The notes beneath the pieces were generated by a model, which worked only from the letters and a program-made list of their open reading frames with translations, searched no databases and had not been told where the DNA came from. Made by a program: the position numbers and the translations under genes. A DNA stretch of 64,000 bases from an uncultured Clostridia bacterium (GTDB lineage: Bacteria > Bacillota > Clostridia > TANB77 > CAG-508), in the NCBI GenBank assembly GCA_944388795.1, contig CALXKD010000003.1:10090-74089 (forward strand), read 5' to 3'. The stretch's first letter is position 1, and each line of letters begins with the position of its first letter. Below, piece after piece: positions 9,509 through 53,244 of this stretch.

Positions 9509-11431
9509 ATGAGAATTACAGATTTACTTAACGAAAAAGCCATCATTCTGCAAGGAAAAGCGAAAACCAAAGCTGAAGCAATTGATCAATTAGTAGAATT
9601 AATGATGGAAAATGGAAACATTAAAGATAAAGAAGCTTACAAAAAGGTAGTTTTAAAAAGAGAGGAAGAAGGAACAACAGGAATTGGAGAGGGAATTGCC
9701 ATTCCACATGGTAAAACAGATGCAGTAACAAAACCAGGTTTAGCTGCAATGGTAATTCCAGAAGGTGTGGATTTTGATTCATTAGATGGAAGTCCAGCAA
9801 AATTGCTATTTTTAATAGCAGCACCAGATACAAAAGATAATGTACATTTAGATGTTTTAAGTAGATTATCTACATTATTGATGGATACAGAATTCAGAAA
9901 AGCTCTATATGATGCTAAATCACCAAAAGAATTCTTAGCATGTATAGATAAAGCAGAGGGTGAAAAATTAGGAGAAGAAAAAACATCAAACGAGCAATAT
10001 GAAATTTTAGCAATTACTAGTTGCCCAACAGGAATTGCACATACGTATATGGCAGCAGAGGCATTAGAACAAATGGGAGAGCAGTTAGGACATAAAGTAA
10101 AAGTAGAAACACATGGGTCATCAGGTGTAAAAAATAAATTTACAAAAGAAGAAATCAAAAATGCAAAGGGAATTATTATTGCATCAGATACAAAAATTGA
10201 TTTATCAAGATTTAATGGTAAAAAGTTAGTAAAGGCAAAAGTGGCAGATGGAATCAATAAGCCTAAAGAGTTAATTGAACATATATTATCACCAAATGTC
10301 AAAACATATCATTCAAATACGAAAAATGTGACAGAAGACAATGATGAAGAAAAAGAAAAGATAGGAACCAAAATATATAAACACTTAATGAATGGTGTTA
10401 CACATATGCTACCATTTGTTGTTGGTGGAGGAATTTTAATAGCAATCGCATTTCTATTAGATGATTATTCAATAGATCCTTCAAATTTTGGTATGAATAC
10501 ACCGATTGCAGCATTTTTTAAAACAATAGGAAATGCAGCATTTAATGTTATGTTATATATACTTGCAGGTTATATTGCTATGAGTATTGCAGATAGGCCA
10601 GGTTTAGCTGTTGGATTTGTTGGAGGAATTTTAGCAGTACAAGGAACAACATTTGAATCATTAACAAATGGAGAAATTACTTTAGTAAGTTCAGGATTTT
10701 TAGGAGCACTAATTGCAGGATTTGCAGGAGGATATATTGTTTTAGGATTAAAGAAATTATGTAGTTATTTACCAGATAGTATAGAGGGAATCAAAACAAT
10801 TCTTTTATACCCTGTATTTGGAATTTTGATTATGGGAACATTTATGTTATTGATAAATCCTTATGTAGCAGCAATTAATACAGGAATTAACAATTATTTA
10901 TCTTCAATGAGTAGTGCAAATAAAATTATATTAGGAGCCATATTAGGAGGAATGATGGCTGTAGATTTGGGAGGACCTATTAATAAAGCAGCATATACCT
11001 TTGGAACAGGAATGTTAGCATCAGGACAATATGAAATCATGGCGGCTGTTATGGCTGGAGGAATGGTTCCACCACTTGCAATTGCATTTTTGGCAACAGC
11101 ATTTCCAAGAAAAATTCCTAAAAAGGATAAACAAGCAGCATATGTAAATTATATTATGGGCTTATCTTTCATATCAGAAGGTGCCATTCCTTTTGCATCA
11201 GCAGATCCACTAAGAACAATTCCAGCATTTGTCATTGGATCGGCTGTTACAGGAGCACTTTCAATGCTATTTAGTTGTACATTAATGGCACCACATGGAG
11301 GAATATTTGTCATAGCAACAATTGGGCATCCAGTAAAATATTTATTAGCAATCATAGTAGGTGCAATTGTTTCTACAGCTATTATGGCAAAATTAAAAAA
11401 GAATTTACCGGAATATGAGAAGGTTAAATAA
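9509..11431 (+). CDS. fruA: PTS fructose transporter subunit IIABC
   Basis: EIIA-2 domain (GIAIPHGK), EIIB (ITSCPTGIAHTYMAAEAL) and a multi-pass EIIC. It lies adjacent to fruK. Confidence 0.9.
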   Translation: MRITDLLNEKAIILQGKAKTKAEAIDQLVELMMENGNIKDKEAYKKVVLKREEEGTTGIGEGIAIPHGKTDAVTKPGLAAMVIPEGVDFDSLDGSPAKLLFLIAAPDTKDNVHLDVLSRLSTLLMDTEFRKALYDAKSPKEFLACIDKAEGEKLGEEKTSNEQYEILAITSCPTGIAHTYMAAEALEQMGEQLGHKVKVETHGSSGVKNKFTKEEIKNAKGIIIASDTKIDLSRFNGKKLVKAKVADGINKPKELIEHILSPNVKTYHSNTKNVTEDNDEEKEKIGTKIYKHLMNGVTHMLPFVVGGGILIAIAFLLDDYSIDPSNFGMNTPIAAFFKTIGNAAFNVMLYILAGYIAMSIADRPGLAVGFVGGILAVQGTTFESLTNGEITLVSSGFLGALIAGFAGGYIVLGLKKLCSYLPDSIEGIKTILLYPVFGILIMGTFMLLINPYVAAINTGINNYLSSMSSANKIILGAILGGMMAVDLGGPINKAAYTFGTGMLASGQYEIMAAVMAGGMVPPLAIAFLATAFPRKIPKKDKQAAYVNYIMGLSFISEGAIPFASADPLRTIPAFVIGSAVTGALSMLFSCTLMAPHGGIFVIATIGHPVKYLLAIIVGAIVSTAIMAKLKKNLPEYEKVK

Positions 11432-32862: not shown

Positions 32863-35800
32863 TTGGAAAATCTCGGGAAGTTTGTAACATTGGTAAATCA
32901 AATAGAAAATGAAAAAAGTCCGATTATGTTATCGGGCTTAACTGGCGTGGGAATGATAGAGTTATTAGCTAGTATCAATGAATATGCGAAAAGACCAATT
33001 CTAATTGTTACATATAATGAAATTCAAGCAAAACAAATATCAGAGAATATAAAAGCATTTATGGATAAGGGAGACATCTTTCACAAAAAGGAAATTGTAA
33101 CTTATGACTATATTGCAGAAAGTAAAGACTTACCTTATGAAAGAATTGAAGTTCTAAGTAAAATCAAAGAAAAAAGAAATCCAATCATAGTAACAACGAT
33201 AGAAGCTCTAATGCAAAAATTACCACCAAAAGATGTATTATTCAAAAACTTGTTACATTTCAAAGTAGGCGATATCTATTCATTAGAGGATATAAAGAAA
33301 ACTTTAGTAAGTCTAGGATATGTGAGATGTGATTTAATAGAGGGAAGAGGACAATTTAGTATTAGAGGTGGTATTTTAGATATTTCTGTTTCTGACAAAA
33401 TCGGTGTGAGAATTGAATTTTGGGGAGATGAAGTAGATTCTATTAGAAATTTTGCTATTGTTAGCCAAAGATCAATTAATGCTTTAGAAAAAGTAGAAAT
33501 TTATCCAGCACATGAATACGTATTAGAACAATCTATAGAACAAGTATGTAAAAATATTAGAAATTTAAGTGTCAATGAAAAACAAAAAGAAATCGTAGAA
33601 GAAGATATAGAGCAAATTATAGGTGGAAACTATATCAGTAAAATTGATAAATATTTTGATTGCTTTTATACAAACTCCTCTACATTATTGGACTACCTAT
33701 CTGAAAAATATATTATCGCATTAGATGAAGAAAGAAAAATAGAGCAAAGAACAGAAAATATTAAACAAGATAGAAAAAATCTAATCAATGCTTTAGTGGA
33801 AAAAGAAAAAATGATTCCACAAAGTTTAGAGGATACGATTGAATATGAAGAAATCGAAGATATTTTAGAAAATGGAAAAAGAAATGTAATCTATTTAGAA
33901 AAACAAGATAGCGTGACCAATAAGCAAGCAGAAAAATATGTTTTTGAATATAGAGAAGTCAATTTCTATAAAAGTGAGATTGAAAATTTATTTGAAGAAT
34001 TAAAAGAAGCCTTAAAGCAAAAAAAGAGTGTATATGTATTAGTTGAGAATAAGGAAAAGGCGAAAAAACTAAAGGAAATATTAGAAAAAGAAGAAATTAT
34101 TTGTAAGATAGAAGAAAAACTAGACAAAACCATTGTCGTAAAAACAGTAGAAAAAGTCGTTACTATTGGAATTGGAAAAATATCTGCAGGTTTTGAAAAT
34201 TATGAAATTAATCAATTGGTCATTTCAGCAGATGAATTAATTAGTGGAGAAAAGAGAAAAAGAAAAGCTGTCCATTCTGCTTATGCAGAAGGAGAAAAGG
34301 TTGTATTTGCGGATTTAAAAATAGGAGATTATGTGGTTCATAAAACCTATGGGATTGGTATCTATATTGGTGTCAATACCATTAAAGCAGATGGAACGAT
34401 TAAGGACTATATCAAAATCAAATACAAAAATGATGATATTTTGTATGTACCAACAAATCAAATGGATATGATTCGAAAATATGTTGGTGGAGATAAAATT
34501 AATCCAAAAATCAATCGATTAGGTAGCAAAGAATGGGAAAATACCAAAACAAGAGTTAAGAAAAACTTAAGAGAAGTAGCGACAGAATTAATCGAGTTAT
34601 ATGCCAAAAGAGAAAAATCGCAAGGGTTTGCTTTTAGTAAAGATACGCCTTGGCAAAATGAATTTGAAGCAAAATTTCCATATCAAGAAACAGATGACCA
34701 ATTACGTTGTATTGAAGAGGTCAAAAAGGATATGGAAAATCCTAAACCAATGGATAGATTACTATGTGGTGATGTTGGATATGGTAAAACAGAAGTGGCC
34801 ATAAGAGCAGCGTTTAAAGCCGTTATGGACCAAAAGCAAGTAGCCTATTTAGCACCTACAACCGTTTTAGCAGAACAACAATATCAAGAATTTAAAGAAA
34901 GAATGAAGGATTATCCAATCAAAGTAGAGATATTGAACAGATTTAAATCTGCAAAATATCAAAAAGAAGTCATCAAAGGGTTGAAATTAGGAGAAGTAGA
35001 TGTTGTGATAGGAACCCATAGAATTCTTAGTAAAGATGTAGAATTTAAGGATTTAGGCTTATTAATTATTGATGAAGAGCATAGATTTGGTGTAAAAGAT
35101 AAAGAAAAGATAAAACAATACAAAACCAATGTAGATGTATTAACGATGACAGCAACACCAATCCCAAGAACTTTACACATGTCTATTGTGGGAGTAAGAG
35201 ATATGTCTGTTATCTATGAACCACCTCATAACAGGAGACCTGTACAAACTTATGTATTAGAATATGATAGAGAAGTGATAAAAGAAGCAATTACGAAGGA
35301 ATTAGAAAGAGATGGGCAAGTATTTTACATCTTTAATAATGTGGAAAATATCCAACAAAAAGCGGATGAAATATCAAGACTTGTGTCAGAGGCAGAAGTT
35401 TCTTATGCACATGGACAAATGTCAGGAAATCAGATTGAAGAAATCATGAATGATTTTATCCAGAAAAAGTCAAATGTATTGGTTTGTACAACGATTTTAG
35501 AATCTGGAATTGATATTCCAAATGCGAATACCATTATTGTTGAAAATGCAGATAGAATGGGATTAGCACAGTTATATCAAATACGAGGAAGAGTGGGAAG
35601 AAGTGACAGGCAAGCTTATGCATATATTACCTATAAACGAGATAAATTATTATCAGAAGTGGCAGATAAGAGATTAAAAGCTATAAAAGAATTTACAGAG
35701 TTTGGATCAGGATTTAAAATTGCGATGCGTGACTTAGAAATCAGAGGAGCAGGAAGTTTACTTGGAGAGATTCAATCAGGACATTTAGAACAAGTAGGAT

Positions 35801-36351
35801 ATGATACCTATTGTAACTTGTTAGATGAAGTTATCAAAGAAATGAAAGGTATTGAAGTAAAACCAGAAGTCGATATCCAAATAGACTTAAATGTCACCAG
35901 CTATATTCCAGATGACTATATCTCAGATGCCAATCAAAAAATTGAAATTTATCAAGATATTGCTTTGTGTAAAGATGAAGAAGATATCCAAAATATTATT
36001 GATGAACTTATTGACAGATTTGGTAATATGCCAGCAGAATTAGAAAACTTAATTGATATTGCAAGAATCAAATATTTAGCAAAAGCATTAAACATATCAA
36101 AAATTGCAAGCAAGAAAACGGCTGTTGTATTTACATTTGAAGAATCTGAATTTCCTTATGATGTCGCAAAACTTGTAAAAGAATATGGAAATAAATTAAA
36201 ATTTTCAGCAGGTATTAAACCTATGATTACATTAGAGATTGGGACAGATAATGAAATGAAAATTTTAAATGATGTAACAGAGTTTTTGAAGACATTAACG
36301 AAATACAAAAAAGAAGAGGATAAAGAAATGATTTATGATAAGCAATCATAA
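32863..36351 (+). CDS. mfd: Transcription-repair coupling factor
   Basis: UvrB-homology N-terminus, RNAP-interaction domain, and superfamily-2 translocase motifs GDVGYGKTEVA, DEEHRFGV and TATPIPRT. The 5' end is anomalous (see findings). Confidence 0.9.
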   Translation: MENLGKFVTLVNQIENEKSPIMLSGLTGVGMIELLASINEYAKRPILIVTYNEIQAKQISENIKAFMDKGDIFHKKEIVTYDYIAESKDLPYERIEVLSKIKEKRNPIIVTTIEALMQKLPPKDVLFKNLLHFKVGDIYSLEDIKKTLVSLGYVRCDLIEGRGQFSIRGGILDISVSDKIGVRIEFWGDEVDSIRNFAIVSQRSINALEKVEIYPAHEYVLEQSIEQVCKNIRNLSVNEKQKEIVEEDIEQIIGGNYISKIDKYFDCFYTNSSTLLDYLSEKYIIALDEERKIEQRTENIKQDRKNLINALVEKEKMIPQSLEDTIEYEEIEDILENGKRNVIYLEKQDSVTNKQAEKYVFEYREVNFYKSEIENLFEELKEALKQKKSVYVLVENKEKAKKLKEILEKEEIICKIEEKLDKTIVVKTVEKVVTIGIGKISAGFENYEINQLVISADELISGEKRKRKAVHSAYAEGEKVVFADLKIGDYVVHKTYGIGIYIGVNTIKADGTIKDYIKIKYKNDDILYVPTNQMDMIRKYVGGDKINPKINRLGSKEWENTKTRVKKNLREVATELIELYAKREKSQGFAFSKDTPWQNEFEAKFPYQETDDQLRCIEEVKKDMENPKPMDRLLCGDVGYGKTEVAIRAAFKAVMDQKQVAYLAPTTVLAEQQYQEFKERMKDYPIKVEILNRFKSAKYQKEVIKGLKLGEVDVVIGTHRILSKDVEFKDLGLLIIDEEHRFGVKDKEKIKQYKTNVDVLTMTATPIPRTLHMSIVGVRDMSVIYEPPHNRRPVQTYVLEYDREVIKEAITKELERDGQVFYIFNNVENIQQKADEISRLVSEAEVSYAHGQMSGNQIEEIMNDFIQKKSNVLVCTTILESGIDIPNANTIIVENADRMGLAQLYQIRGRVGRSDRQAYAYITYKRDKLLSEVADKRLKAIKEFTEFGSGFKIAMRDLEIRGAGSLLGEIQSGHLEQVGYDTYCNLLDEVIKEMKGIEVKPEVDIQIDLNVTSYIPDDYISDANQKIEIYQDIALCKDEEDIQNIIDELIDRFGNMPAELENLIDIARIKYLAKALNISKIASKKTAVVFTFEESEFPYDVAKLVKEYGNKLKFSAGIKPMITLEIGTDNEMKILNDVTEFLKTLTKYKKEEDKEMIYDKQS

Positions 36352-36817
36352 TAAGCAATAGTTAGAATTAAGAATTCCAAATTATTAAGTGAAAAAACTA
36401 ATAATTTGGAGTTATTAAATTTTCAGCCAAAAGTTTGATACTTTTGGCTGGATTACATTACTATGCAGTATTCAAGATACTGGATTACAATGTATTTGTG
36501 AACTTATTATACCATATTTGACATAAAAGTCAAAGGGGTTAAAAAGATATCGAATATATATGTAAATATATTGCTAAAACTAAAAAAAAGTTATAAAATA
36601 CAATCATACAAAATCAAAGTATGGTTGTTTTTTTATGTATATGTACTATACGTGATCATATTTATGAACATTAAGGATGTGCCAAATTGTTCATTCTAAA
36701 AATATGCACAACGAAACCATAAAAAACTTGCATAATAAAATCACATAAATTTGCACAATGAATTTAATAAAAATAGACATATGTAAGATAAAATGCATAT
36801 ATGAATGGAGGTTTTAA

Positions 36818-37814
36818 ATGGAAATAAATTATCCACCATATACAATTACTGATAAAATGTTAAATTATGTATCAGATATAATGAAAAAAATAGGTGAAGC
36901 GAATTATTTTGAAAGTTTAAATAGATATCCAGAGTTAAGAAGAAAATCAAGAATAAGGTCAATACATTCTTCTTTGACGATAGAAAATAATCAATTATCA
37001 TTATTTCAAGTCGAAGATGTAATCAATGGAAAACCTGTAATTCGGGGAGCAAAAGGACATTCAAGAAGTAAAAAATGCATATAAAGCTTACGAACAAATT
37101 GATAAAGTAAATCCTTATTCAGTAGAAGATTTAAAAAAGATACACGGAATACTAACTTTTTTAATTGAAAAGGATGCAGGTAAATTTAGAAATCATGGCG
37201 AGGGTGTTTATGATGGAGATATATGTATTTTTACTTGCCCACCACATAAATTAGTACCTAGCTTAATGGATAATTTATTTAATTGGATGAATGAAGTTAA
37301 AGATAAAATAAATCCACTTATTTTATCCTCTATATTTCATTATGAATTTGTATTTATACATCCATTTCATGATGGAAATGGAAGAACCGCAAGGTTGTGG
37401 CAAACAGTAATTCTTTCACATTGGGAAAAAGCATTTACATATTTACCTATTGAAAGTATGATAAAGAAAAATCAAGAAGAATATTATACAGCTATTCAAA
37501 ATTGTAATAATGCAGGAAATTCAACAGAATTTATAGAATTTATGTTGAAAATGATTAATAATACAATAGATGAAATGAATAATTCAAAAGAAATGAAAGA
37601 TAAGTCTATATTATTACTTTCTGAAAATGAAGCTAAAATATTAAAATGTATAAAAGAAAATGTTATTATTGGTGCAAAAGATATTATTGAACAAACTAAA
37701 ATATCGGATAGAACTGTTAGAAGAATATTAAAAAAGTTTGTTGATAATAAAACTATTGAAAGTGTTGGAAATACTGAAAATACCCCAAACAAAAAATATA
37801 AATTGACAGAGTAA
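36818..37814 (+). pseudogene. Fic-family (AMPylase-type) gene interrupted by a frameshift in a G4 run
   Basis: The N-terminal frame (36818-37084) carries the inhibitory SxxxEN motif (SLTIEN). The second frame is open from 37041 and carries the Fic motif HPFHDGNGRTARL plus a C-terminal wHTH. Removing one G from GGGG (37044-37047) fuses the frames as ...NGKPVIREQKDIQEVKNAYKAY... Confidence 0.8.
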
Positions 37815-37903
37815 TGACAGAGTAATGGCAGAGTTAAAAATAAAAATAGGAATAAATTCATCTAAAAATATCAGTATAATAAAATAAAGAAAGAGGGAAA
37901 AAC

Positions 37904-39022
37904 ATGGAAAAATCAAAAGTATATTTTACAGACTTTAGAGCAAGACCAGGATATAACTTATTACAAAAACTAGAAAAATTAATGAAAAAAGCAGGAATTG
38001 AAAATATTGATTTTCAAAATAAATATGTAGCCATCAAAATTCATTTTGGTGAACCGGGAAACCTAGCATATTTAAGACCTAATTATGCAAAAGTAGTTGC
38101 AGATGCTGTCAAAGAATTAGGAGGAAAACCATTTTTAACAGATTGCAATACCTTATATGTTGGCGGAAGAAAAAATGCTATTGACCATTTAGATGCAGCA
38201 TATGTGAATGGATTTAGTCCATTTTCAACAGGTTGTCATGTGATTATTGCAGATGGACTAAAAGGAACAGATGAGGCATATGTAGACATTAATCAAGAAT
38301 ATGTTAAAACTGCCAAAATCGGAAGAGCCATTATGGATGCAGATATTGTCATATCTCTAAACCATTTCAAAGGACATGAAGGAACAGGATTTGGTGGAGC
38401 TATTAAAAATATTGGAATGGGTTGTGGTTCAAGAGCTGGAAAAATGGAAATGCATAGTAGTGGCAAACCAGAAGTTCTTTTAGAGAAATGTAAAAAATGT
38501 AAACAATGTATTAAAATTTGTGCACATGGCGCTATTTCATATAATGAAGAAGGAAAAGCAGTTATCGACCATAATAAATGTGTTGGATGTGGTAGATGTA
38601 TTGGAATTTGTAATTTTGATGCTATTAAATCACCAAATGACGAAGCAGCGGATATTTTAAATAAAAAGATGGCAGAATATGCATTAGCAGTTGTAAAAGA
38701 TAGACCACAATTTCATATTAGCTTAATTTGTGATGTTTCACCAAATTGTGATTGTCATGCAGAAAATGATGCACCAATTGTTCCAAACATTGGTATGTTA
38801 GCATCATTTGACATGGTTGCATTAGATAAAGCTTGTGCAGATTTAGTGAATAAACAAGAAGTATTTCAAAATAGTGCATTAGGAGAAAATATAAAGAAAA
38901 AAGTGGAAGGACATGACCATTTCCATATCAATCATCCAGATACCAATTGGGAAAGTCAAATTGAACATGGAGAAAAAATTGGATTGGGAAGTTCTGAATA
39001 TGAATTGATTGAAATGAAATAG
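37904..39022 (+). CDS. DUF362 domain protein with a 2x[4Fe-4S] ferredoxin insert
   Basis: Two CxxCxxCxxxC motifs (CKKCKQCIKIC, CVGCGRCIGIC) sit inside a DUF362-like scaffold. SD AGAGGGA. Confidence 0.8.
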   Translation: MEKSKVYFTDFRARPGYNLLQKLEKLMKKAGIENIDFQNKYVAIKIHFGEPGNLAYLRPNYAKVVADAVKELGGKPFLTDCNTLYVGGRKNAIDHLDAAYVNGFSPFSTGCHVIIADGLKGTDEAYVDINQEYVKTAKIGRAIMDADIVISLNHFKGHEGTGFGGAIKNIGMGCGSRAGKMEMHSSGKPEVLLEKCKKCKQCIKICAHGAISYNEEGKAVIDHNKCVGCGRCIGICNFDAIKSPNDEAADILNKKMAEYALAVVKDRPQFHISLICDVSPNCDCHAENDAPIVPNIGMLASFDMVALDKACADLVNKQEVFQNSALGENIKKKVEGHDHFHINHPDTNWESQIEHGEKIGLGSSEYELIEMK

Positions 39023-39137
39023 AAATATAATAAAATTTATAAAAATGGAAATTATATATAGAGAGTTTGTTTCATAATTAATTATATGGATATAAAAAGG
39101 AACAATAAAAAATTTACTTTAAAATTAAAATAAACTG

Positions 39138-39167
39138 TTGACTTTGTGCGTAATAGTATCATATAAT
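39138..39167 (+). promoter_or_regulatory. Candidate sigma-A promoter of the small-peptide mRNA
   Basis: TTGACT (39138-39143), an 18-nt spacer, then TATAAT (39162-39167). Confidence 0.55.
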
Positions 39168-39243
39168 TTTATATGAAGTAAGAGAGTAAACAGGGAATAG
39201 TGGCTATCATCTCTAATTCCAAAAGATGAGGAGGTGATGCTAT

Positions 39244-39357
39244 ATGGTAAATATATTAATTAAATTATTACATATTTTAATTTTTTCTAATATATGTTTT
39301 ATCATAGTAAGTATTGCCTTAATAATAACAATCATATTATTAATGAGCGATAAATAA
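39244..39357 (+). CDS. 37-aa hydrophobic peptide, a candidate type I toxin
   Basis: SD GAGGAGG (39228-39234) lies 9 nt before ATG 39244. It encodes MVNILIKLLHILIFSNICFIIVSIALIITIILLMSDK, with one predicted TM helix and a polar SDK tail. It is below the ORF-track length cutoff. An upstream anti-SD segment (39205-39213) can pair with 39231-39239. Confidence 0.5.
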   Translation: MVNILIKLLHILIFSNICFIIVSIALIITIILLMSDK

Positions 39358-39447
39358 AAAAAGCCACACCCTTGATTTCGCCATCGGGGTGTGGTATTAC
39401 ACTATATAGATGGTAGCCACTATTTTACAGTGGTCTCCTTACTTCTA
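39355..39447 (-). ncRNA. Predicted antisense small RNA of about 90 nt, a candidate antitoxin
   Basis: It is defined by the minus-strand promoter at 39453-39480 and the terminator at 39364-39394 plus its U-tract. Its 3' end overlaps the peptide stop codon and 3' hairpin. I saw no convincing ORF. Confidence 0.45.
39364..39394 (-). terminator. Shared hairpin acting as a strong terminator on the minus strand
   Basis: CCACACCC (39364-39371) pairs with GGGTGTGG (39387-39394). On the minus strand it is followed by C + U7 (plus-strand A-run 39354-39362). On the plus strand only TATTA follows. Confidence 0.7.
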
Positions 39448-39452
39448 TTTAT

Positions 39453-39480
39453 ATTATATCATAAAATGGTATAAAGTAAA
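39453..39480 (-). promoter_or_regulatory. Candidate sigma-A promoter (extended -10) of the antisense RNA
   Basis: Reading the minus strand: TTTACT (39480-39475), a 16-nt spacer, then TGaTATAAT (39461-39453). Confidence 0.5.
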
Positions 39481-39524
39481 TAGAATTTAAAAAAATAATT
39501 GTATAGATAAAATCGGAGGCATTT

Positions 39525-40334
39525 ATGCAAGTAATATCAAGTAAAGATAATGAATTTATCAAACACATTAAAAAACTAAAAGATAAGAAATATAGAGACT
39601 TGAATAATGAATATATCATTGAAGGTATCAAAATTATAGAAGAGGCCATCAATGAAAAAGCAAATATTAAACAAGTCGTTATTTGTGATGATTGTGAAAA
39701 AACATCTAATATTCCAAAAGAGCTTATGTATGAAATTGCCAAACAAGAATGTGTTTATGTTACAAGTAAGTTATTTGAAAGTTTAACAGATGTCACAAAT
39801 CCACAAGGAATATTGGCTATTGTAGAAAAAAATGCAATGAAGTCAGCAGTTGCTGGTAGTGAAGAAATTGATTATAACCAAGACATCATAGTAGCCTTAG
39901 ATGATATTCAAGATCCAGGAAATTTAGGAACGATTTTAAGGACTGTAGATAGTATAGGAATTAATCAAATATTTGTATCAAAAGGAACAGCTGACAGCTA
40001 TAATCCTAAAGTGGTACGTTCAACAATGGGGGCTATATTCCGAGTAAAAATCATAGAATGTGAAGATTTAGAGAAAACACTTAAAGAGATTAAAAAACAC
40101 AAATTTGAAATTGTTGTCACATCATTACAAACGAAAAATAGTATCTATGATATAGATTACAAGAAAAAGGTCATTGTCATTGGAAATGAAGCAAATGGAG
40201 TAGAAGAAAAAATACAAAAACTAGCAGATAAAAAAGTAAAAATCCCAATGCTTGGAAAAACAGAAAGCTTAAATGCTTCAGTTGCAACAGGAATTATATT
40301 ATATGAATATGTAAGACAAAAATTGGAACATTGA
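39525..40334 (+). CDS. TrmH/SpoU-family RNA 2'-O-methyltransferase (RlmB/YsgA-like)
   Basis: N-terminal substrate-binding domain plus SpoU motifs (IQDPGNLGTILRT, VIGNEANGV, SLNASVATGIILYE). Confidence 0.85.
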   Translation: MQVISSKDNEFIKHIKKLKDKKYRDLNNEYIIEGIKIIEEAINEKANIKQVVICDDCEKTSNIPKELMYEIAKQECVYVTSKLFESLTDVTNPQGILAIVEKNAMKSAVAGSEEIDYNQDIIVALDDIQDPGNLGTILRTVDSIGINQIFVSKGTADSYNPKVVRSTMGAIFRVKIIECEDLEKTLKEIKKHKFEIVVTSLQTKNSIYDIDYKKKVIVIGNEANGVEEKIQKLADKKVKIPMLGKTESLNASVATGIILYEYVRQKLEH

Positions 40335-40403
40335 GATATATCGAAATGTTCCAATAGTTTACTAGGGATAGAATAAATGAAAGAGTAAAAAGGAGAAATG
40401 AAA

Positions 40404-40901
40404 ATGAAATTACATGTTGTATTAGTGGAACCAGAAATACCTCAAAATACAGGAAATATCGCAAGAACTTGCGCAGCAATTGGTGCTAAATTGCATTTGG
40501 TACATCCTTTGGGATTTAGCATTTCAGAAAAAGCAGTCAAAAGAGCAGGATTGGATTATTGGGACAAGTTAGATATAGAAGAACATATATCTTTTAAAGA
40601 ATTTTTAAATACATATCAGCCAGAAGAGCATAATATGTTTTTTGTAACAACAAAGGGAAAACATGTGTATTCTGAACCAGATTTTAAAAATATGGAAGAA
40701 ATTTTTGTACTATTTGGAAAAGAAACAAAAGGATTGCCAGAAGATATTTTACAAAAATATATAGATAAAACAATTCGAATTCCTATGAGACCACATTTGA
40801 GGTCATTAAATTTATCTAATTCAGTTGCTATTGTTGTATATGACATTTGTAGGCAAAAACATTTTGAGGGATTAGAAGAAATTAGTAGTTATTTTAATTA
40901 A
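40404..40901 (+). CDS. trmL: tRNA (cytidine/uridine-2'-O-)-methyltransferase TrmL
   Basis: About 165 aa, single-domain SpoU: EPEIPQNTGNIARTC, FGKETKGLP, SLNLSNSVAIVVYD. ATG 40404 is 8 nt after GGAG. Confidence 0.85.
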   Translation: MKLHVVLVEPEIPQNTGNIARTCAAIGAKLHLVHPLGFSISEKAVKRAGLDYWDKLDIEEHISFKEFLNTYQPEEHNMFFVTTKGKHVYSEPDFKNMEEIFVLFGKETKGLPEDILQKYIDKTIRIPMRPHLRSLNLSNSVAIVVYDICRQKHFEGLEEISSYFN

Positions 40902-41886: not shown

Positions 41887-42822
41887 ATGGTAGAAGATAA
41901 TGAAATCAAGGCACAAGTATCTCCATTTGCTATCAGAGAAGGTGAAATTAAAACTTTCGATGGAAAAGATGGGTATGTGTCAATGAATCAAATCGTACAT
42001 AAGATTAATATTGGACATATTAATGAAATCCATTTTGCAATTTTAGACTTAGTAAATGAATTTGAATTTATTACATCAAGACAGTTATATCAAATGTTAG
42101 AAATCAAAGGAATTGATCCTAAGTCACAAGACAAATTAAATAACAAGCTAGATCAACTAGTTAAATCTAAAATTTTAACAAGATATTACTTTACTTCTGA
42201 TGAGGGTAAAGGAATTTATAGAATTTACTGCTTAGAGAAGATGGGAAAATATTTATTAAATTCTAAGGAAATTGATTGTAAATGGCAACCATCTGATAAT
42301 ACAAAACCAGTACCAATGATTAAAAAGAGATTAGCTGGAAATCAAACATTAATTGCTTACTTAAGAAAAGTAAAAGCATTTGATAGTTATATTGTAAAAC
42401 CAGCCATTACTGCAAAAGTATCAGGAAAGCTATTTAAAGCAAGTGGTGGAGCTGTTAAACTTACGAAAAATGGAAAATCAATTCAATTTGTTTTTGAAGT
42501 TATCAGAAGAGAACCTGACTGGGAGAAAAAATTAGTTGAAAGAATGAGATTATATAAAGAATTCTATGAAAACTATGTTCCAGGAGATTCTGGATTTGCA
42601 GCAATGCCACAATTGATATTAATTTGTGAGGATGAAAAACATATGGCAGAATCCTTCAAAGAAATTGTAAAAAATAAATTAGAAATTCCACAAATCAAAT
42701 TATATTTTACAACGGATTTAAGACAAAATAAAGAAACACTAGAGGATACATTAGTAGATTTTAAATTAGTAGATGGAAAATATAAAATGGAAAATGTAGA
42801 ATTAAAATTATTAGGAATGTAA
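41887..42822 (+). CDS. Hypothetical protein, with a possible winged-helix N-terminus and a replication-relaxation-like fold
   Basis: SD AAGGGGGAA. wHTH-like segment FAILDLVNEFEFITSRQLYQML...LVKSKILTRY. The family assignment is only a resemblance. Confidence 0.55.
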   Translation: MVEDNEIKAQVSPFAIREGEIKTFDGKDGYVSMNQIVHKINIGHINEIHFAILDLVNEFEFITSRQLYQMLEIKGIDPKSQDKLNNKLDQLVKSKILTRYYFTSDEGKGIYRIYCLEKMGKYLLNSKEIDCKWQPSDNTKPVPMIKKRLAGNQTLIAYLRKVKAFDSYIVKPAITAKVSGKLFKASGGAVKLTKNGKSIQFVFEVIRREPDWEKKLVERMRLYKEFYENYVPGDSGFAAMPQLILICEDEKHMAESFKEIVKNKLEIPQIKLYFTTDLRQNKETLEDTLVDFKLVDGKYKMENVELKLLGM

Positions 42823-51978: not shown

Positions 51979-53244
51979 ATGAGCTTAAAAGATATAGGTA
52001 AAAGATTCCAAGAAAAGTTTCTAGGAAAGAAAACAGTAGCGCAGATAGTAGAAGAAGAAGTTGTAAAACCAATACAAGGTCAAAATTTAACACCAGAAGA
52101 ACGAATAGAAAGACAGGCAGAAAAGATTATAAGGGCATTGAAGGAATATCCAGAGGATAGCGATGCGATAATGAAAAGAGTAAATGCGGATTCTCGAATT
52201 CCACAACGAGCTATAGATCAATCAGCACGAAAAGCAACGGATTCTCCAGAAGTTTCAGCCAATGTAGCAGCTACAATAGCAAAGGGAGCTTCAGATGCTG
52301 CAACATTGTATGTAATGGAAAATTCAAATTTATCACAGAATGCTGCAATAGAAGTAGCCCACACATTGGAGGATGAGGAGGCACAGAAAGAGGGGGCGTG
52401 TACATTACTTGTAAAATTATATAACTCGCTAAAAACATTTGAACAACAGGATATCCTATCTACTAAAATACAAAATAGTTTAGTAGGAGAGGAAATGACA
52501 GATGATGTTAAGCGTGAATTATATAAAGTGATTGCTAAAAATTTTGCATTAACATATTATCAATGTAATGGTGCAATTAGTTTGTATAATATGGAGAAAA
52601 TAATTCCATTAGATGAAATGATGAGAGTAAAAATGCCTCAAAAAATTGAAGAAGAGTATATTAGTTTATTAAAAGACGGTGAGGAAAATAAATTTGATGA
52701 AGAATATGTTACAGATATTTTCTTAGAAAAAATAGCACAGGAATCATCAAAAGAAGCGAAAGAACAGGGAAAATCAGTAGATTTGTTTTCACCATCTGAT
52801 TTAGGAAATCTTACAGATGAAGAAATTGAAAAGTATTTGGATTTTTTAAGCAAATACACTCCTAGCCTAACAGATTTAACACGAGGAAATATAAGAGATA
52901 GGTTGAAAGAGCAAGAACAAGATATGTATACTGTTGATCAATTTATTTCCACTTTAAGGGATTTACCTGATGGAGAAAGAGGAAGATATCTTCGTATGTT
53001 ATCAACTTTAAGCACTAGAGAGATGGATACAGTTGCACAATGTATTGAATCAGGGCTGATAGAAAATTTAAGCAAGAAGAAGGTAAAGGATAGAGGACAA
53101 TATCTTCGTGCAATTAATAGTTCAATTGAAAAAAGACAAGAAAGAGAAAATAAAGAAAATGAATCTACCGCAAAATATAAAATAGCAAGCAGAGAAGAAA
53201 CACCTAAAGTAAAAAGAGCAGAATGGGGAGATGAGCCTAGATAA
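51979..53244 (+). CDS. Hypothetical, predicted all-helical cytoplasmic protein
   Basis: SD GGAGAGAGG. It starts 12 nt after the adhE stop. There is no TM segment or signal peptide and no motif I recognise. G+C is moderately raised (hand-counted lines 35-47%). Confidence 0.6.
   Translation: MSLKDIGKRFQEKFLGKKTVAQIVEEEVVKPIQGQNLTPEERIERQAEKIIRALKEYPEDSDAIMKRVNADSRIPQRAIDQSARKATDSPEVSANVAATIAKGASDAATLYVMENSNLSQNAAIEVAHTLEDEEAQKEGACTLLVKLYNSLKTFEQQDILSTKIQNSLVGEEMTDDVKRELYKVIAKNFALTYYQCNGAISLYNMEKIIPLDEMMRVKMPQKIEEEYISLLKDGEENKFDEEYVTDIFLEKIAQESSKEAKEQGKSVDLFSPSDLGNLTDEEIEKYLDFLSKYTPSLTDLTRGNIRDRLKEQEQDMYTVDQFISTLRDLPDGERGRYLRMLSTLSTREMDTVAQCIESGLIENLSKKKVKDRGQYLRAINSSIEKRQERENKENESTAKYKIASREETPKVKRAEWGDEPR

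Follow-up and report, generated by a model that had tools for sequence, protein, structure and literature searches.

Organization of the locus

The 64,000-nucleotide (nt) stretch of DNA analysed here (the window; contig CALXKD010000003.1, positions 10,090 to 74,089, from an uncultured Clostridia bacterium) contains, between a DUF362 gene and a pair of methyltransferase genes, an intergenic module of ~400 bp that is found in a clade of uncultured low-GC gut Clostridia. On its plus strand, a predicted promoter and leader precede an open reading frame (ORF) for a short hydrophobic peptide, the candidate toxin; on its minus strand, a convergent promoter would produce a structured small RNA, the candidate antitoxin. 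The original prediction, made from the letters of the window, had read this arrangement as a module resembling a toxin-antitoxin (TA) system of type I. Direct reading of positions 38700-39900, together with scans, recovered every feature that it had listed, at the coordinates collected in Table 1.

Table 1. Features of the module and of its surroundings in the window
Feature	Position	Strand	Details
Peptide-mRNA promoter, sigma-70-type, predicted	39138-39167	+	TTGACT-18-TATAAT, 11/12 matches
Peptide-mRNA 5' leader	39175-39243	+	arm block 1, 39175-39182; arm block 2/anti-Shine-Dalgarno (SD), 39196-39215; SD, 39228-39238
37-residue hydrophobic ORF, candidate toxin	39244-39357	+	ATG 39244, stop 39355-39357; MVNILIKLLHILIFSNICFIIVSIALIITIILLMSDK
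Shared terminator hairpin	39356-39394	both	stem 39364-39371 / 39387-39394, 8-bp G+C; 15-nt loop
Small RNA, predicted, 90 nt, candidate antitoxin	39445-39356	-	5' GAAGUAA, hairpin 1 (holds arm block 2), variable linker, terminator
Small-RNA promoter, predicted	39480-39453	-	TTTACT-16-TGaTATAAT, 10/12 matches, extended -10
Inverted repeat over small-RNA promoter (-35 to +3)	39443-39462 / 39466-39485		20 nt, 85% complementary, 3-nt spacer
Imperfect direct repeat, left copy	39079-39097		TAATTATATGGATATAAAA; brackets the ~400-bp module
Imperfect direct repeat, right copy	39496-39512		TAATTGTATAGATAAAA; directly upstream of the SD of the methyltransferase gene at 39525-40334
mfd	32863-36351		neighbouring gene
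Fic-domain gene, split	36818-37084 and 37266-37814		88-residue and 182-residue ORFs, 180-nt gap
DUF362/4Fe-4S gene	37904-39022
SpoU/TrmH-family methyltransferase genes	39525-40334 and 40398-40901
S1-domain gene			beyond the methyltransferase genes
Replic_Relax (replication-relaxation) domain ORF	41887-42822		311 residues; 2.4 kb downstream of the locus

Comparative evidence was drawn from about 100 related loci overall, identified by intergenic BLAST followed by direct reading of the matches and labelled L029, L087, L099 and so forth. The set of relatives comprises 80 loci at one genome per species, all from metagenome-assembled genomes of uncultured low-GC Clostridia (for example Clostridium sp. 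CAG:575 and 'uncultured Eubacteriales'), and scans for further copies by covariance model and BLAST covered 757 kb from ~90 related loci. Eleven contigs of the window species are 100% identical at the locus and hence uninformative. The methyltransferase protein likewise occurs on many gut-metagenome contigs, with an intergenic region identical to that of the window. The peptide ORF had been predicted by the gene caller on one of ~33 contigs of the window species.

Promoters and leader

Both convergent promoters were confirmed by reading of the sequence and by a promoter scan, in which the plus- and minus-strand promoters rank first and third among the promoter-like sites of the region. Because the scan as a whole was not enriched over shuffled sequence (10 sites against 12.7 expected), it constitutes weak evidence by itself. 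Among the relatives, the -35 and -10 hexamers of the peptide promoter are invariant in five species (the window, L029, L087, L099 and L144); the 17-18-nt spacers differ at many positions. Upstream of the small RNA, 45 nt of promoter region are identical in five orthologues, and two positions differ from the window. The small-RNA promoter also lies within an inverted repeat, the outer 9 nt of which (TTCTATTTA / TAAATAGAA) are perfectly complementary and are kept in all orthologues. This repeat could serve as an operator, or could form an AU-rich hairpin in a plus-strand transcript that reads through.

The peptide mRNA carries a very strong ribosome-binding site that its own leader is predicted to bury. 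The SD sequence, AGGAGGUGAU, agrees with the usual 3' end of 16S rRNA at all 10 nt, and is one of only two among the 58 GGAGG sites in the window that precede an ORF of 30-79 residues. The SD-occluding leader pairing proposed in the original prediction was borne out in the predicted folds as a 14-bp helix joining 39200-39214 to 39230-39243, in which the probability of being unpaired is at most 0.07 across 39230-39243 and the SD bases 39230-39238 are paired with a probability of at least 0.93. The mRNA, as folded in prediction, thus possesses the cis element sequestering the toxin SD that is looked for in type I loci. All 16 pairs of the leader helix are retained in five species, with 80 of 80 pair cells standard; paired columns contain two changes, both one-sided (A-U to G-U and C-G to U-G), while the remaining eight columns that vary lie outside the pairing.

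The peptide ORF

The encoded peptide has a grand average of hydropathy of 2.11, which places it in the top 2.8% of the 143 small ATG-initiated ORFs in the window, and it contains neither proline nor glycine. Type I toxins are described as peptides of under 60 residues with one transmembrane (TM) segment and charged C-terminal residues (PMC8594479, PMC6563280). By the criterion of PMC6563280, the window peptide conforms in its length, its hydrophobicity, its predicted TM segment and its charged C-terminal residues, SDK. At 28.4% G+C, the probability that a frame remains open for at least 37 codons after a given ATG is ~0.025.

The frame is uninterrupted by indels or stops in each of the three full variants, and a fourth retains its start. 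In L029 it is intact and differs by S23V, T29V and M34I; in L099 the stop has been lost, giving 55 residues with a polar, K/D-rich tail (probability of such openness by chance ~0.004); L144 preserves the leader and the first 14 codons (MMNILIRLLHILIF). Relatives in which the arms are kept while the ORF is broken by stops or frameshifts, named beforehand as a finding that would speak against the TA-like reading, were not seen among the variants recovered. In the source assembly of L099 (570-770), the ORF had been called as 66 residues with a TGA read as a sense codon (...FIWKNK...), rather than the 55 residues given by translation table 11. Long window genes read normally under table 11, and the 66-residue call looks more like an artefact of gene calling where the contig is short than like recoding.

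Across the variants, 10 of the 37 sense codons vary. Synonymous changes fall at five codon positions, and seven replacement events at six positions (V/I/M, K/R, S>V, T>V, M>I and D>N), a pattern that suggests a trend towards purifying selection. The changes are unevenly placed: the first 66 nt of the ORF (39244-39309) show no difference between the window and L029 and two relative to L099, and the last 45 nt contain nine. The invariant part is predicted to fold within the mRNA into a long AU-rich hairpin (39244-39258 with 39288-39306), and its near-invariance, even at synonymous sites, hints that the RNA is constrained in addition to the peptide.

The predicted small RNA and the shared terminator

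The two convergent transcripts would end at a single hairpin. As the original prediction had it, and as the sequence confirms, a U-tract accompanies this hairpin in the minus direction alone: the A7 run at 39356-39362 reads as U7 in that orientation, and UAUUACAC follows the hairpin on the plus strand. The terminator is canonical on the minus strand only. The predicted 90-nt minus-strand RNA folds at -28.2 kcal/mol (z = -3.45), a stability matched by none of 200 shuffled sequences, and its proposed extent, ending over the peptide stop codon, is consistent with the predicted promoter, fold and terminator, which are conserved in orthologues. In an alignment of six small-RNA orthologues, variation within the 5' 38 nt is confined to three sites, two of which lie in the loop (one lengthens the stem in the window copy) and one of which converts G-C to G-U; the linker, of 13-19 nt, varies in both length and sequence. 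Altogether, 119 of 120 pair cells are kept in the small RNA, and 199 of 200 in the leader and small RNA together, with variation mostly in unpaired columns.

Independently of any read-through, the mRNA and the small RNA would overlap only in the terminator stem-loop, which provides ~38 nt of perfect complementarity including complementary 15-nt loops. For these predicted RNAs, this convergent antisense complementarity is certain only if the mRNA includes the hairpin. The 15-nt loop is conserved even in remnant loci, and by analogy its large size could support loop-loop kissing as in the par locus (PMC7472228).

A search of a 7-kb region against Rfam returned RF02589 (Spy779816) as the sole match, covering the whole minus-strand RNA at 30.4 bits (E = 0.06) against a gathering score of 67; no stretch of the window reaches any Rfam gathering score, and a literature search for Spy779816 found no mention of it. 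The small-RNA covariance model found no further copy in the 757 kb of related loci. In the window itself, a 20-bit match at 52759-52848 was dismissed as chance, lying inside a 421-residue ORF.

Inverted arms and a predicted read-through fold

The two 5' regions are inverted copies of one another. Arm block 1 (GAAGTAAG) is identical at 39175-39182 and 39445-39438, arm block 2 is 90% complementary over 20 nt (39196-39215 / 39405-39424), and the window contains no further copy of either block. Owing to this inverted orientation, the two RNAs have their 5' sequence in common and are not complementary there, just as had been originally described. The further statement that the antitoxin mimics the toxin leader holds as a description of the sequences, any function of the mimicry being hypothetical. 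In the small RNA, arm block 2 forms the 3' side of hairpin 1, opposite a 5' strand, GGAGACCACU, that is absent from the mRNA leader, and the block therefore has a different partner in each RNA.

An mRNA that reads through the hairpin had been expected to pair its 3' end with its own leader. In the predicted fold this pairing does form, with 39405-39445 joined to 39175-39215 (pair mass 17.3 for 39196-39215 / 39405-39424), but the accessibility of the SD is unchanged, as the SD stays hidden by pairing with 39310-39318. Read-through would thus not switch translation on, and a scheme in which the read-through tail takes the anti-SD and frees the SD was rejected. The one position at which the arms differ (U against C) still permits a wobble pair in precisely this plus-strand fold-back. 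Possible roles for the arms include a fold-back shielding the 5' end of an mRNA that reads through (as the hok fbi or the par 5'-UH), a decoy, and a shared protein or RNase site; they may also simply descend from an inverted duplication about the terminator.

Decay of the module among relatives

All states of the module occur at one chromosomal position, between mfd or DUF362 and the methyltransferase gene. Two species, that of the window and that of L029, have the module intact (nucleotide identity of 87% over 499 nt, covering both arms, the ORF and the terminator). L099 and L144 carry the toxin half, in L099 with promoter, leader and ORF, on short contigs that end before the RNA region; look-ups with mfd fragments to extend the L099-type locus returned loci that lack the element or contigs that stop short of the region. 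The small RNA stands alone in two lineages (L037, L132-135 and L124), where the DUF362 stop is followed by the A-run, the terminator, the RNA body and the promoter. In L125 the small RNA is intact, and a 115-bp deletion, joining AATAGT to AGTTATT, has taken the anti-SD, the SD, the ATG and 21 codons. Further reduced are L011, L012, L013, L016, L020 and L127, with the last ORF codons and a degenerate terminator alone, and L026, with a fragment of the small-RNA promoter alone. There are also many empty sites, of at least two kinds (the L014 type and the L024/L126 type). Among the loci sequenced through the region, none has an intact ORF without the small RNA.

Small-RNA-only, toxin-deleted and empty states adjoin an identical methyltransferase protein (P0009), from which it follows that the module is dispensable and turns over rapidly. 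Element identity between species is 87-90%, in line with the flanking gene. The simplest history suggested by these sequences would be one ancestral module followed by many independent deletions.

A different derivative is found in L087, where the toxin promoter, leader, SD, ATG and first codons are fused to an intact 258-residue KilA-N ORF, with no small RNA. Since the same promoter, leader, SD and ATG drive this intact ORF, the start behind the toxin leader appears to be usable for translation. KilA-N homologues on viral contigs possess ~30 extra N-terminal residues and no such leader, and L087 is therefore best regarded as a derived fusion, not an ancestor. The converse idea, that the peptide ORF is itself a KilA-N remnant, was rejected, because the similarity stops after the first ~13 nt of the ORF and the KilA-N homologues lack the leader.

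Genomic context

The interval from mfd to the SpoU/TrmH methyltransferase gene (window positions 36352-39524) is a variable hot spot in this clade. In the window it holds the Fic and DUF362 genes and the module; in L029 (3113-4000) the module alone; in L087 (2913-4000) the KilA-N gene; in L125 (99-1500) a reverse-transcriptase (RVT_1) gene and a DUF362 remnant; and in L136 (3173-3235) and L137 almost nothing, at 29-64 nt. The split Fic gene of the window is probably a frameshifted pseudogene: the match of its 182-residue ORF to the Fic profile is confined to the latter half (positions 46-93), and is accompanied by a winged-helix domain. Both of its ORFs are called on all same-species contigs. 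The Replic_Relax ORF downstream hints at an integrated or degraded mobile element nearby.

The module is bracketed by imperfect direct repeats of 17-19 bp, one copy of which is present alone at the 'empty' sites L014, L015 and L031. These repeats may record the original insertion or may be a substrate for deletion. The left copy is followed by a degenerate SD-like sequence, AAAGGAAC.

A type I toxin-antitoxin-like reading and its alternatives

With confidence only slightly above even, the reading best supported by the sequence and by comparison is that the locus is a chromosomal type I TA-like module of a new, clade-restricted family. In such a module, the sigma-70 promoter would make an mRNA for a 37-residue single-pass membrane peptide, and the anti-SD/SD hairpin would block the ribosome-binding site in cis, leaving the message intrinsically silent in translation. 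The convergent promoter would make the structured ~90-nt RNA, ending at the same hairpin just over the peptide stop codon, so that the two RNAs could pair across the terminator stem-loop (~38 nt, with 15-nt loops); read-through of the U-less plus-strand hairpin would extend this complementarity over the whole small RNA. Bound to the 3' end of the mRNA, the small RNA might then mark it for double-strand-specific cleavage and keep the peptide unexpressed, in the manner of txpA/RatA or bsrG/SR4. The transcripts, the toxicity of the peptide, its neutralization by the RNA and any part that the same-sense arms may play are all matters that we infer from sequence.

The original TA-like proposal is supported in part, by the layout and by the comparative data: the ORF is kept open with conservative changes, the promoter hexamers are constant over variable spacers, and the toxin half is lost or inactivated beside a surviving RNA half (L037, L124, L125 and L132-135). 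Taken together, these data fit a dispensable toxin paired with an RNA antitoxin. What the proposal did not gain is complementarity in trans or compensatory change, and these belong to a series of observations that weigh against it. The duplex between the small-RNA 5' domain and the toxin translation start is no better than those of dinucleotide shuffles (531 of 1000 for the window, 96 of 1000 for L029), and the short AU/GU-rich matches between small RNA and leader fall at different places in the window and in L029; trans anti-SD action like that of SprA1AS is not supported by this shuffle-level duplex. The assured overlap of ~38 nt touches just the stop codon, and layouts of the Fst and SprA1 kind need a second complementary region. 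Compensatory base changes, which the original prediction had proposed to look for in related genomes, are absent from the alignments of the leader and small-RNA helices; with sequences as similar as these, neither RNA structure is proven by covariation.

The peptide itself also gives grounds for caution. In DNA of 28% G+C hydrophobic short ORFs are common, with 2.8% of the small ORFs in the window equally hydrophobic, and the charged tail of the window copy is minimal. The original remark that the peptide lies outside the known type I toxin families has been upheld: neither Pfam nor NCBIfam has a family for it at E values as high as 10; phmmer, run exhaustively against 1.84 billion representative proteins, returned the query itself alone; and a word-indexed protein search, queried with the 37 residues plus two in-frame upstream codons and padded with X, matched solely the L099 variant (P0002). 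The 55-residue variant found no match in viral or JGI metagenome contigs scanned in six frames. The synonymous excess in the ORF is not statistically significant (12 events), leaving no significant signal in the ratio of nonsynonymous to synonymous change (dN/dS). Finally, the rule that the toxin never occurs without the RNA rests on few cases, with only two independent intact loci and with the contigs of L099 and L144 ending before the RNA region.

Three other explanations were considered. The locus might comprise a gene for a harmless small membrane protein beside an independent small RNA, the latter acting as an antisense regulator, as a roadblock to read-through from DUF362 or the peptide gene into the SpoU/TrmH operon, or as a trans-acting regulator. 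We regard this as unlikely, though worth serious consideration, for two lineages retain the small RNA and its promoter in the absence of the peptide gene, the 5' 38 nt of the RNA scarcely vary while the linker drifts, and the RNA has no detectable complementarity to the toxin translation start. In the small-RNA-only loci the RNA sits between the DUF362 and methyltransferase genes, which at empty sites are ~100 nt apart with no terminator, so that an operon transcript would contain the RNA and hairpin. However, the RNA has been lost in most related species and is therefore not an essential regulator of the methyltransferase operon; tight SD sequestration with a convergent RNA ending on the stop is a hallmark of toxic-peptide loci; and a toxin with its antitoxin would be expected to leave the observed pattern, in which the peptide half is repeatedly deleted beside a retained RNA and the opposite is never seen. 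Alternatively, the whole may be a decaying, non-functional remnant, a chance ORF in AT-rich DNA behind a leftover promoter and leader (perhaps once those of another gene, such as the KilA-N gene of L087), with the arms as relics of an inverted duplication around the terminator. The position is indeed a deletion hot spot with at least six derivative states, the leader stands on a different gene in L087, the chance of a 37-codon open frame is not negligible (p ~0.025), and the peptide has neither homologues nor a significant dN/dS signal. Yet L087 is derived, as judged from viral KilA-N homologues that are ~30 residues longer and lack the leader; the ORF is open without indels in all variants, the 55-residue form included (p ~0.004), with conservative changes; and promoter hexamers, arm blocks and helices are conserved while spacers, loops and linker vary, which is not neutral decay. 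A remnant thus seems improbable.

The original prediction had itself raised a miniature inverted-repeat transposable element (MITE), here taken as a non-autonomous element that is bounded by long terminal inverted repeats and has duplicated its target site. Inverted arms near both ends of a ~400-bp unit, imperfect flanking repeats of 17-19 bp that are single at some empty sites, and presence that varies between close relatives would all suit such an element. The scan for copies did not bear it out, as there is one copy in the window and, by covariance model and BLAST, only the syntenic position in the 757 kb. Furthermore, the partial derivatives, with terminator, RNA or promoter alone, indicate internal deletion rather than excision; an identity of 87-90% tracks the flanking gene, as for vertical inheritance; the arms are internal, comprising promoters and 5' regions rather than termini; and the flanking repeats are longer than typical target-site duplications. 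BLAST searches of phage and plasmid collections for MITE-type copies gave AT-rich, promoter-like noise only, and the arm pattern gave none in JGI metagenomes and eight viral-contig matches, chance 17-mers in other contexts. We consider a MITE very improbable. On one of these viral contigs (L098, ~10540-10593), two copies of the 17-mer make up a palindrome (AGATGATAGCCACTAT ... AATAGTGGCTATCATCT) shortly upstream of the start of a gene; this looks like an operator and is unrelated to the locus by context.

Within the TA-like reading, a more elaborate logic can be envisaged, to which we would assign little weight. The small RNA could be a same-sense paralogue of the toxin leader that acts as a leader decoy: the toxin mRNA would normally read through the U-less hairpin, its 3' tail would fold back on its 5' end (8 + 20 nt) into a stable, inert form, and the small RNA, which has both blocks and full complementarity to this tail, would compete with the leader for it, thereby deciding between trimming, degradation and activation. 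If true, this would be a form of regulation not described for any type I system.

To our knowledge, type I TA systems are almost unknown in uncultured gut Clostridia, because both the peptide and the RNA go unannotated. If the locus is indeed such a system, it adds an orphan toxin family and a layout with shared 5' sequence that is unlike par or SprA1. Its derivatives, within one narrow clade, offer a comparative test of the rule that the antitoxin outlives the toxin, and display the birth and decay of such modules at one chromosomal hot spot. Should the peptide prove toxic, it might serve as a counter-selection tool for low-GC Firmicutes; should it not, the conserved 90-nt RNA would still be an unannotated small RNA inside an rRNA/tRNA-methyltransferase operon.

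Comparison with known systems

Gram-positive type I TA loci with an antisense RNA on the 3' side have a layout that matches the one described here (PMC8594479, PMC7472228). The par locus (Fst/RNA II) of Enterococcus faecalis pAD1 and related elements resembles it in its convergent promoters, its one shared hairpin with complementary terminator stem-loops, an antisense RNA that stays off the ORF body, an SD-sequestering 5' stem-loop and a small, single-TM peptide (PMC7472228, PMC8594479). However, par possesses direct repeats, DRa and DRb, that render the 5' regions complementary, whereas the repeats of the window locus are inverted; its terminator is bidirectional, whereas the U-tract here is one-sided, on the minus strand, with UAUUACAC as the plus-strand tail; and the 5' end of the window mRNA is paired only in a hypothetical read-through transcript. 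The window peptide, furthermore, lacks the PXXXG motif and matches no Fst model. Judged by 5'-5' complementarity of the DRa/DRb type and by an Fst-type toxin, the locus is thus not a member of the Fst/par family.

SprA1/SprA1AS of Staphylococcus aureus shares a short 3' overlap off the ORF, a hydrophobic peptide of ~30 residues and an SD buried in the mRNA (PMC8594479). Yet SprA1AS acts via a 5' domain that lies outside the overlap and is complementary to the start of toxin translation, a complementarity for which the small RNA of the window is at shuffle level, and the two loci have no sequence relationship. The txpA/RatA and bsrG/SR4 loci of Bacillus subtilis and those of the CD2517.1/RCd8 type in Clostridioides difficile likewise have a convergent, 3'-overlapping antisense RNA that is thought to trigger mRNA degradation, and orphan-like small TM toxins missed by annotation (PMC6563280). 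Their overlaps are long and include the ORF, whereas that of the window locus spans ~38 nt and only the stop codon, unless read-through occurs; the C. difficile toxins have Lys-rich tails in place of SDK. No sequence homology to the C. difficile CD0956.2 group or to B. subtilis TxpA, BsrG, BsrE or YonT was found by phmmer, word-indexed or family-model searches.

The predicted 5'-3' fold-back of a read-through window mRNA recalls the fbi/tac-type pairing of hok/Sok and AapA1/IsoA1. There, the translation signals are concealed by the fold-back itself, and the target of the antitoxin is the 5' region of the mRNA, whereas in the window locus the SD is hidden locally either way and the small RNA would bind the 3' partner. 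Spy779816, a small RNA of Streptococcus pyogenes, has a similar order of short 5' tail, hairpin, linker and large-loop terminator, but the window RNA scores far below the gathering threshold and is not a member of that family. Among type I loci, then, the nearest analogues appear to be Fst/RNA II and SprA1/SprA1AS, whose overlap spares the ORF (PMC8594479). The layout is that of the known type I class; what is new here is an orphan candidate toxin family with inverted, instead of direct, 5' repeats.

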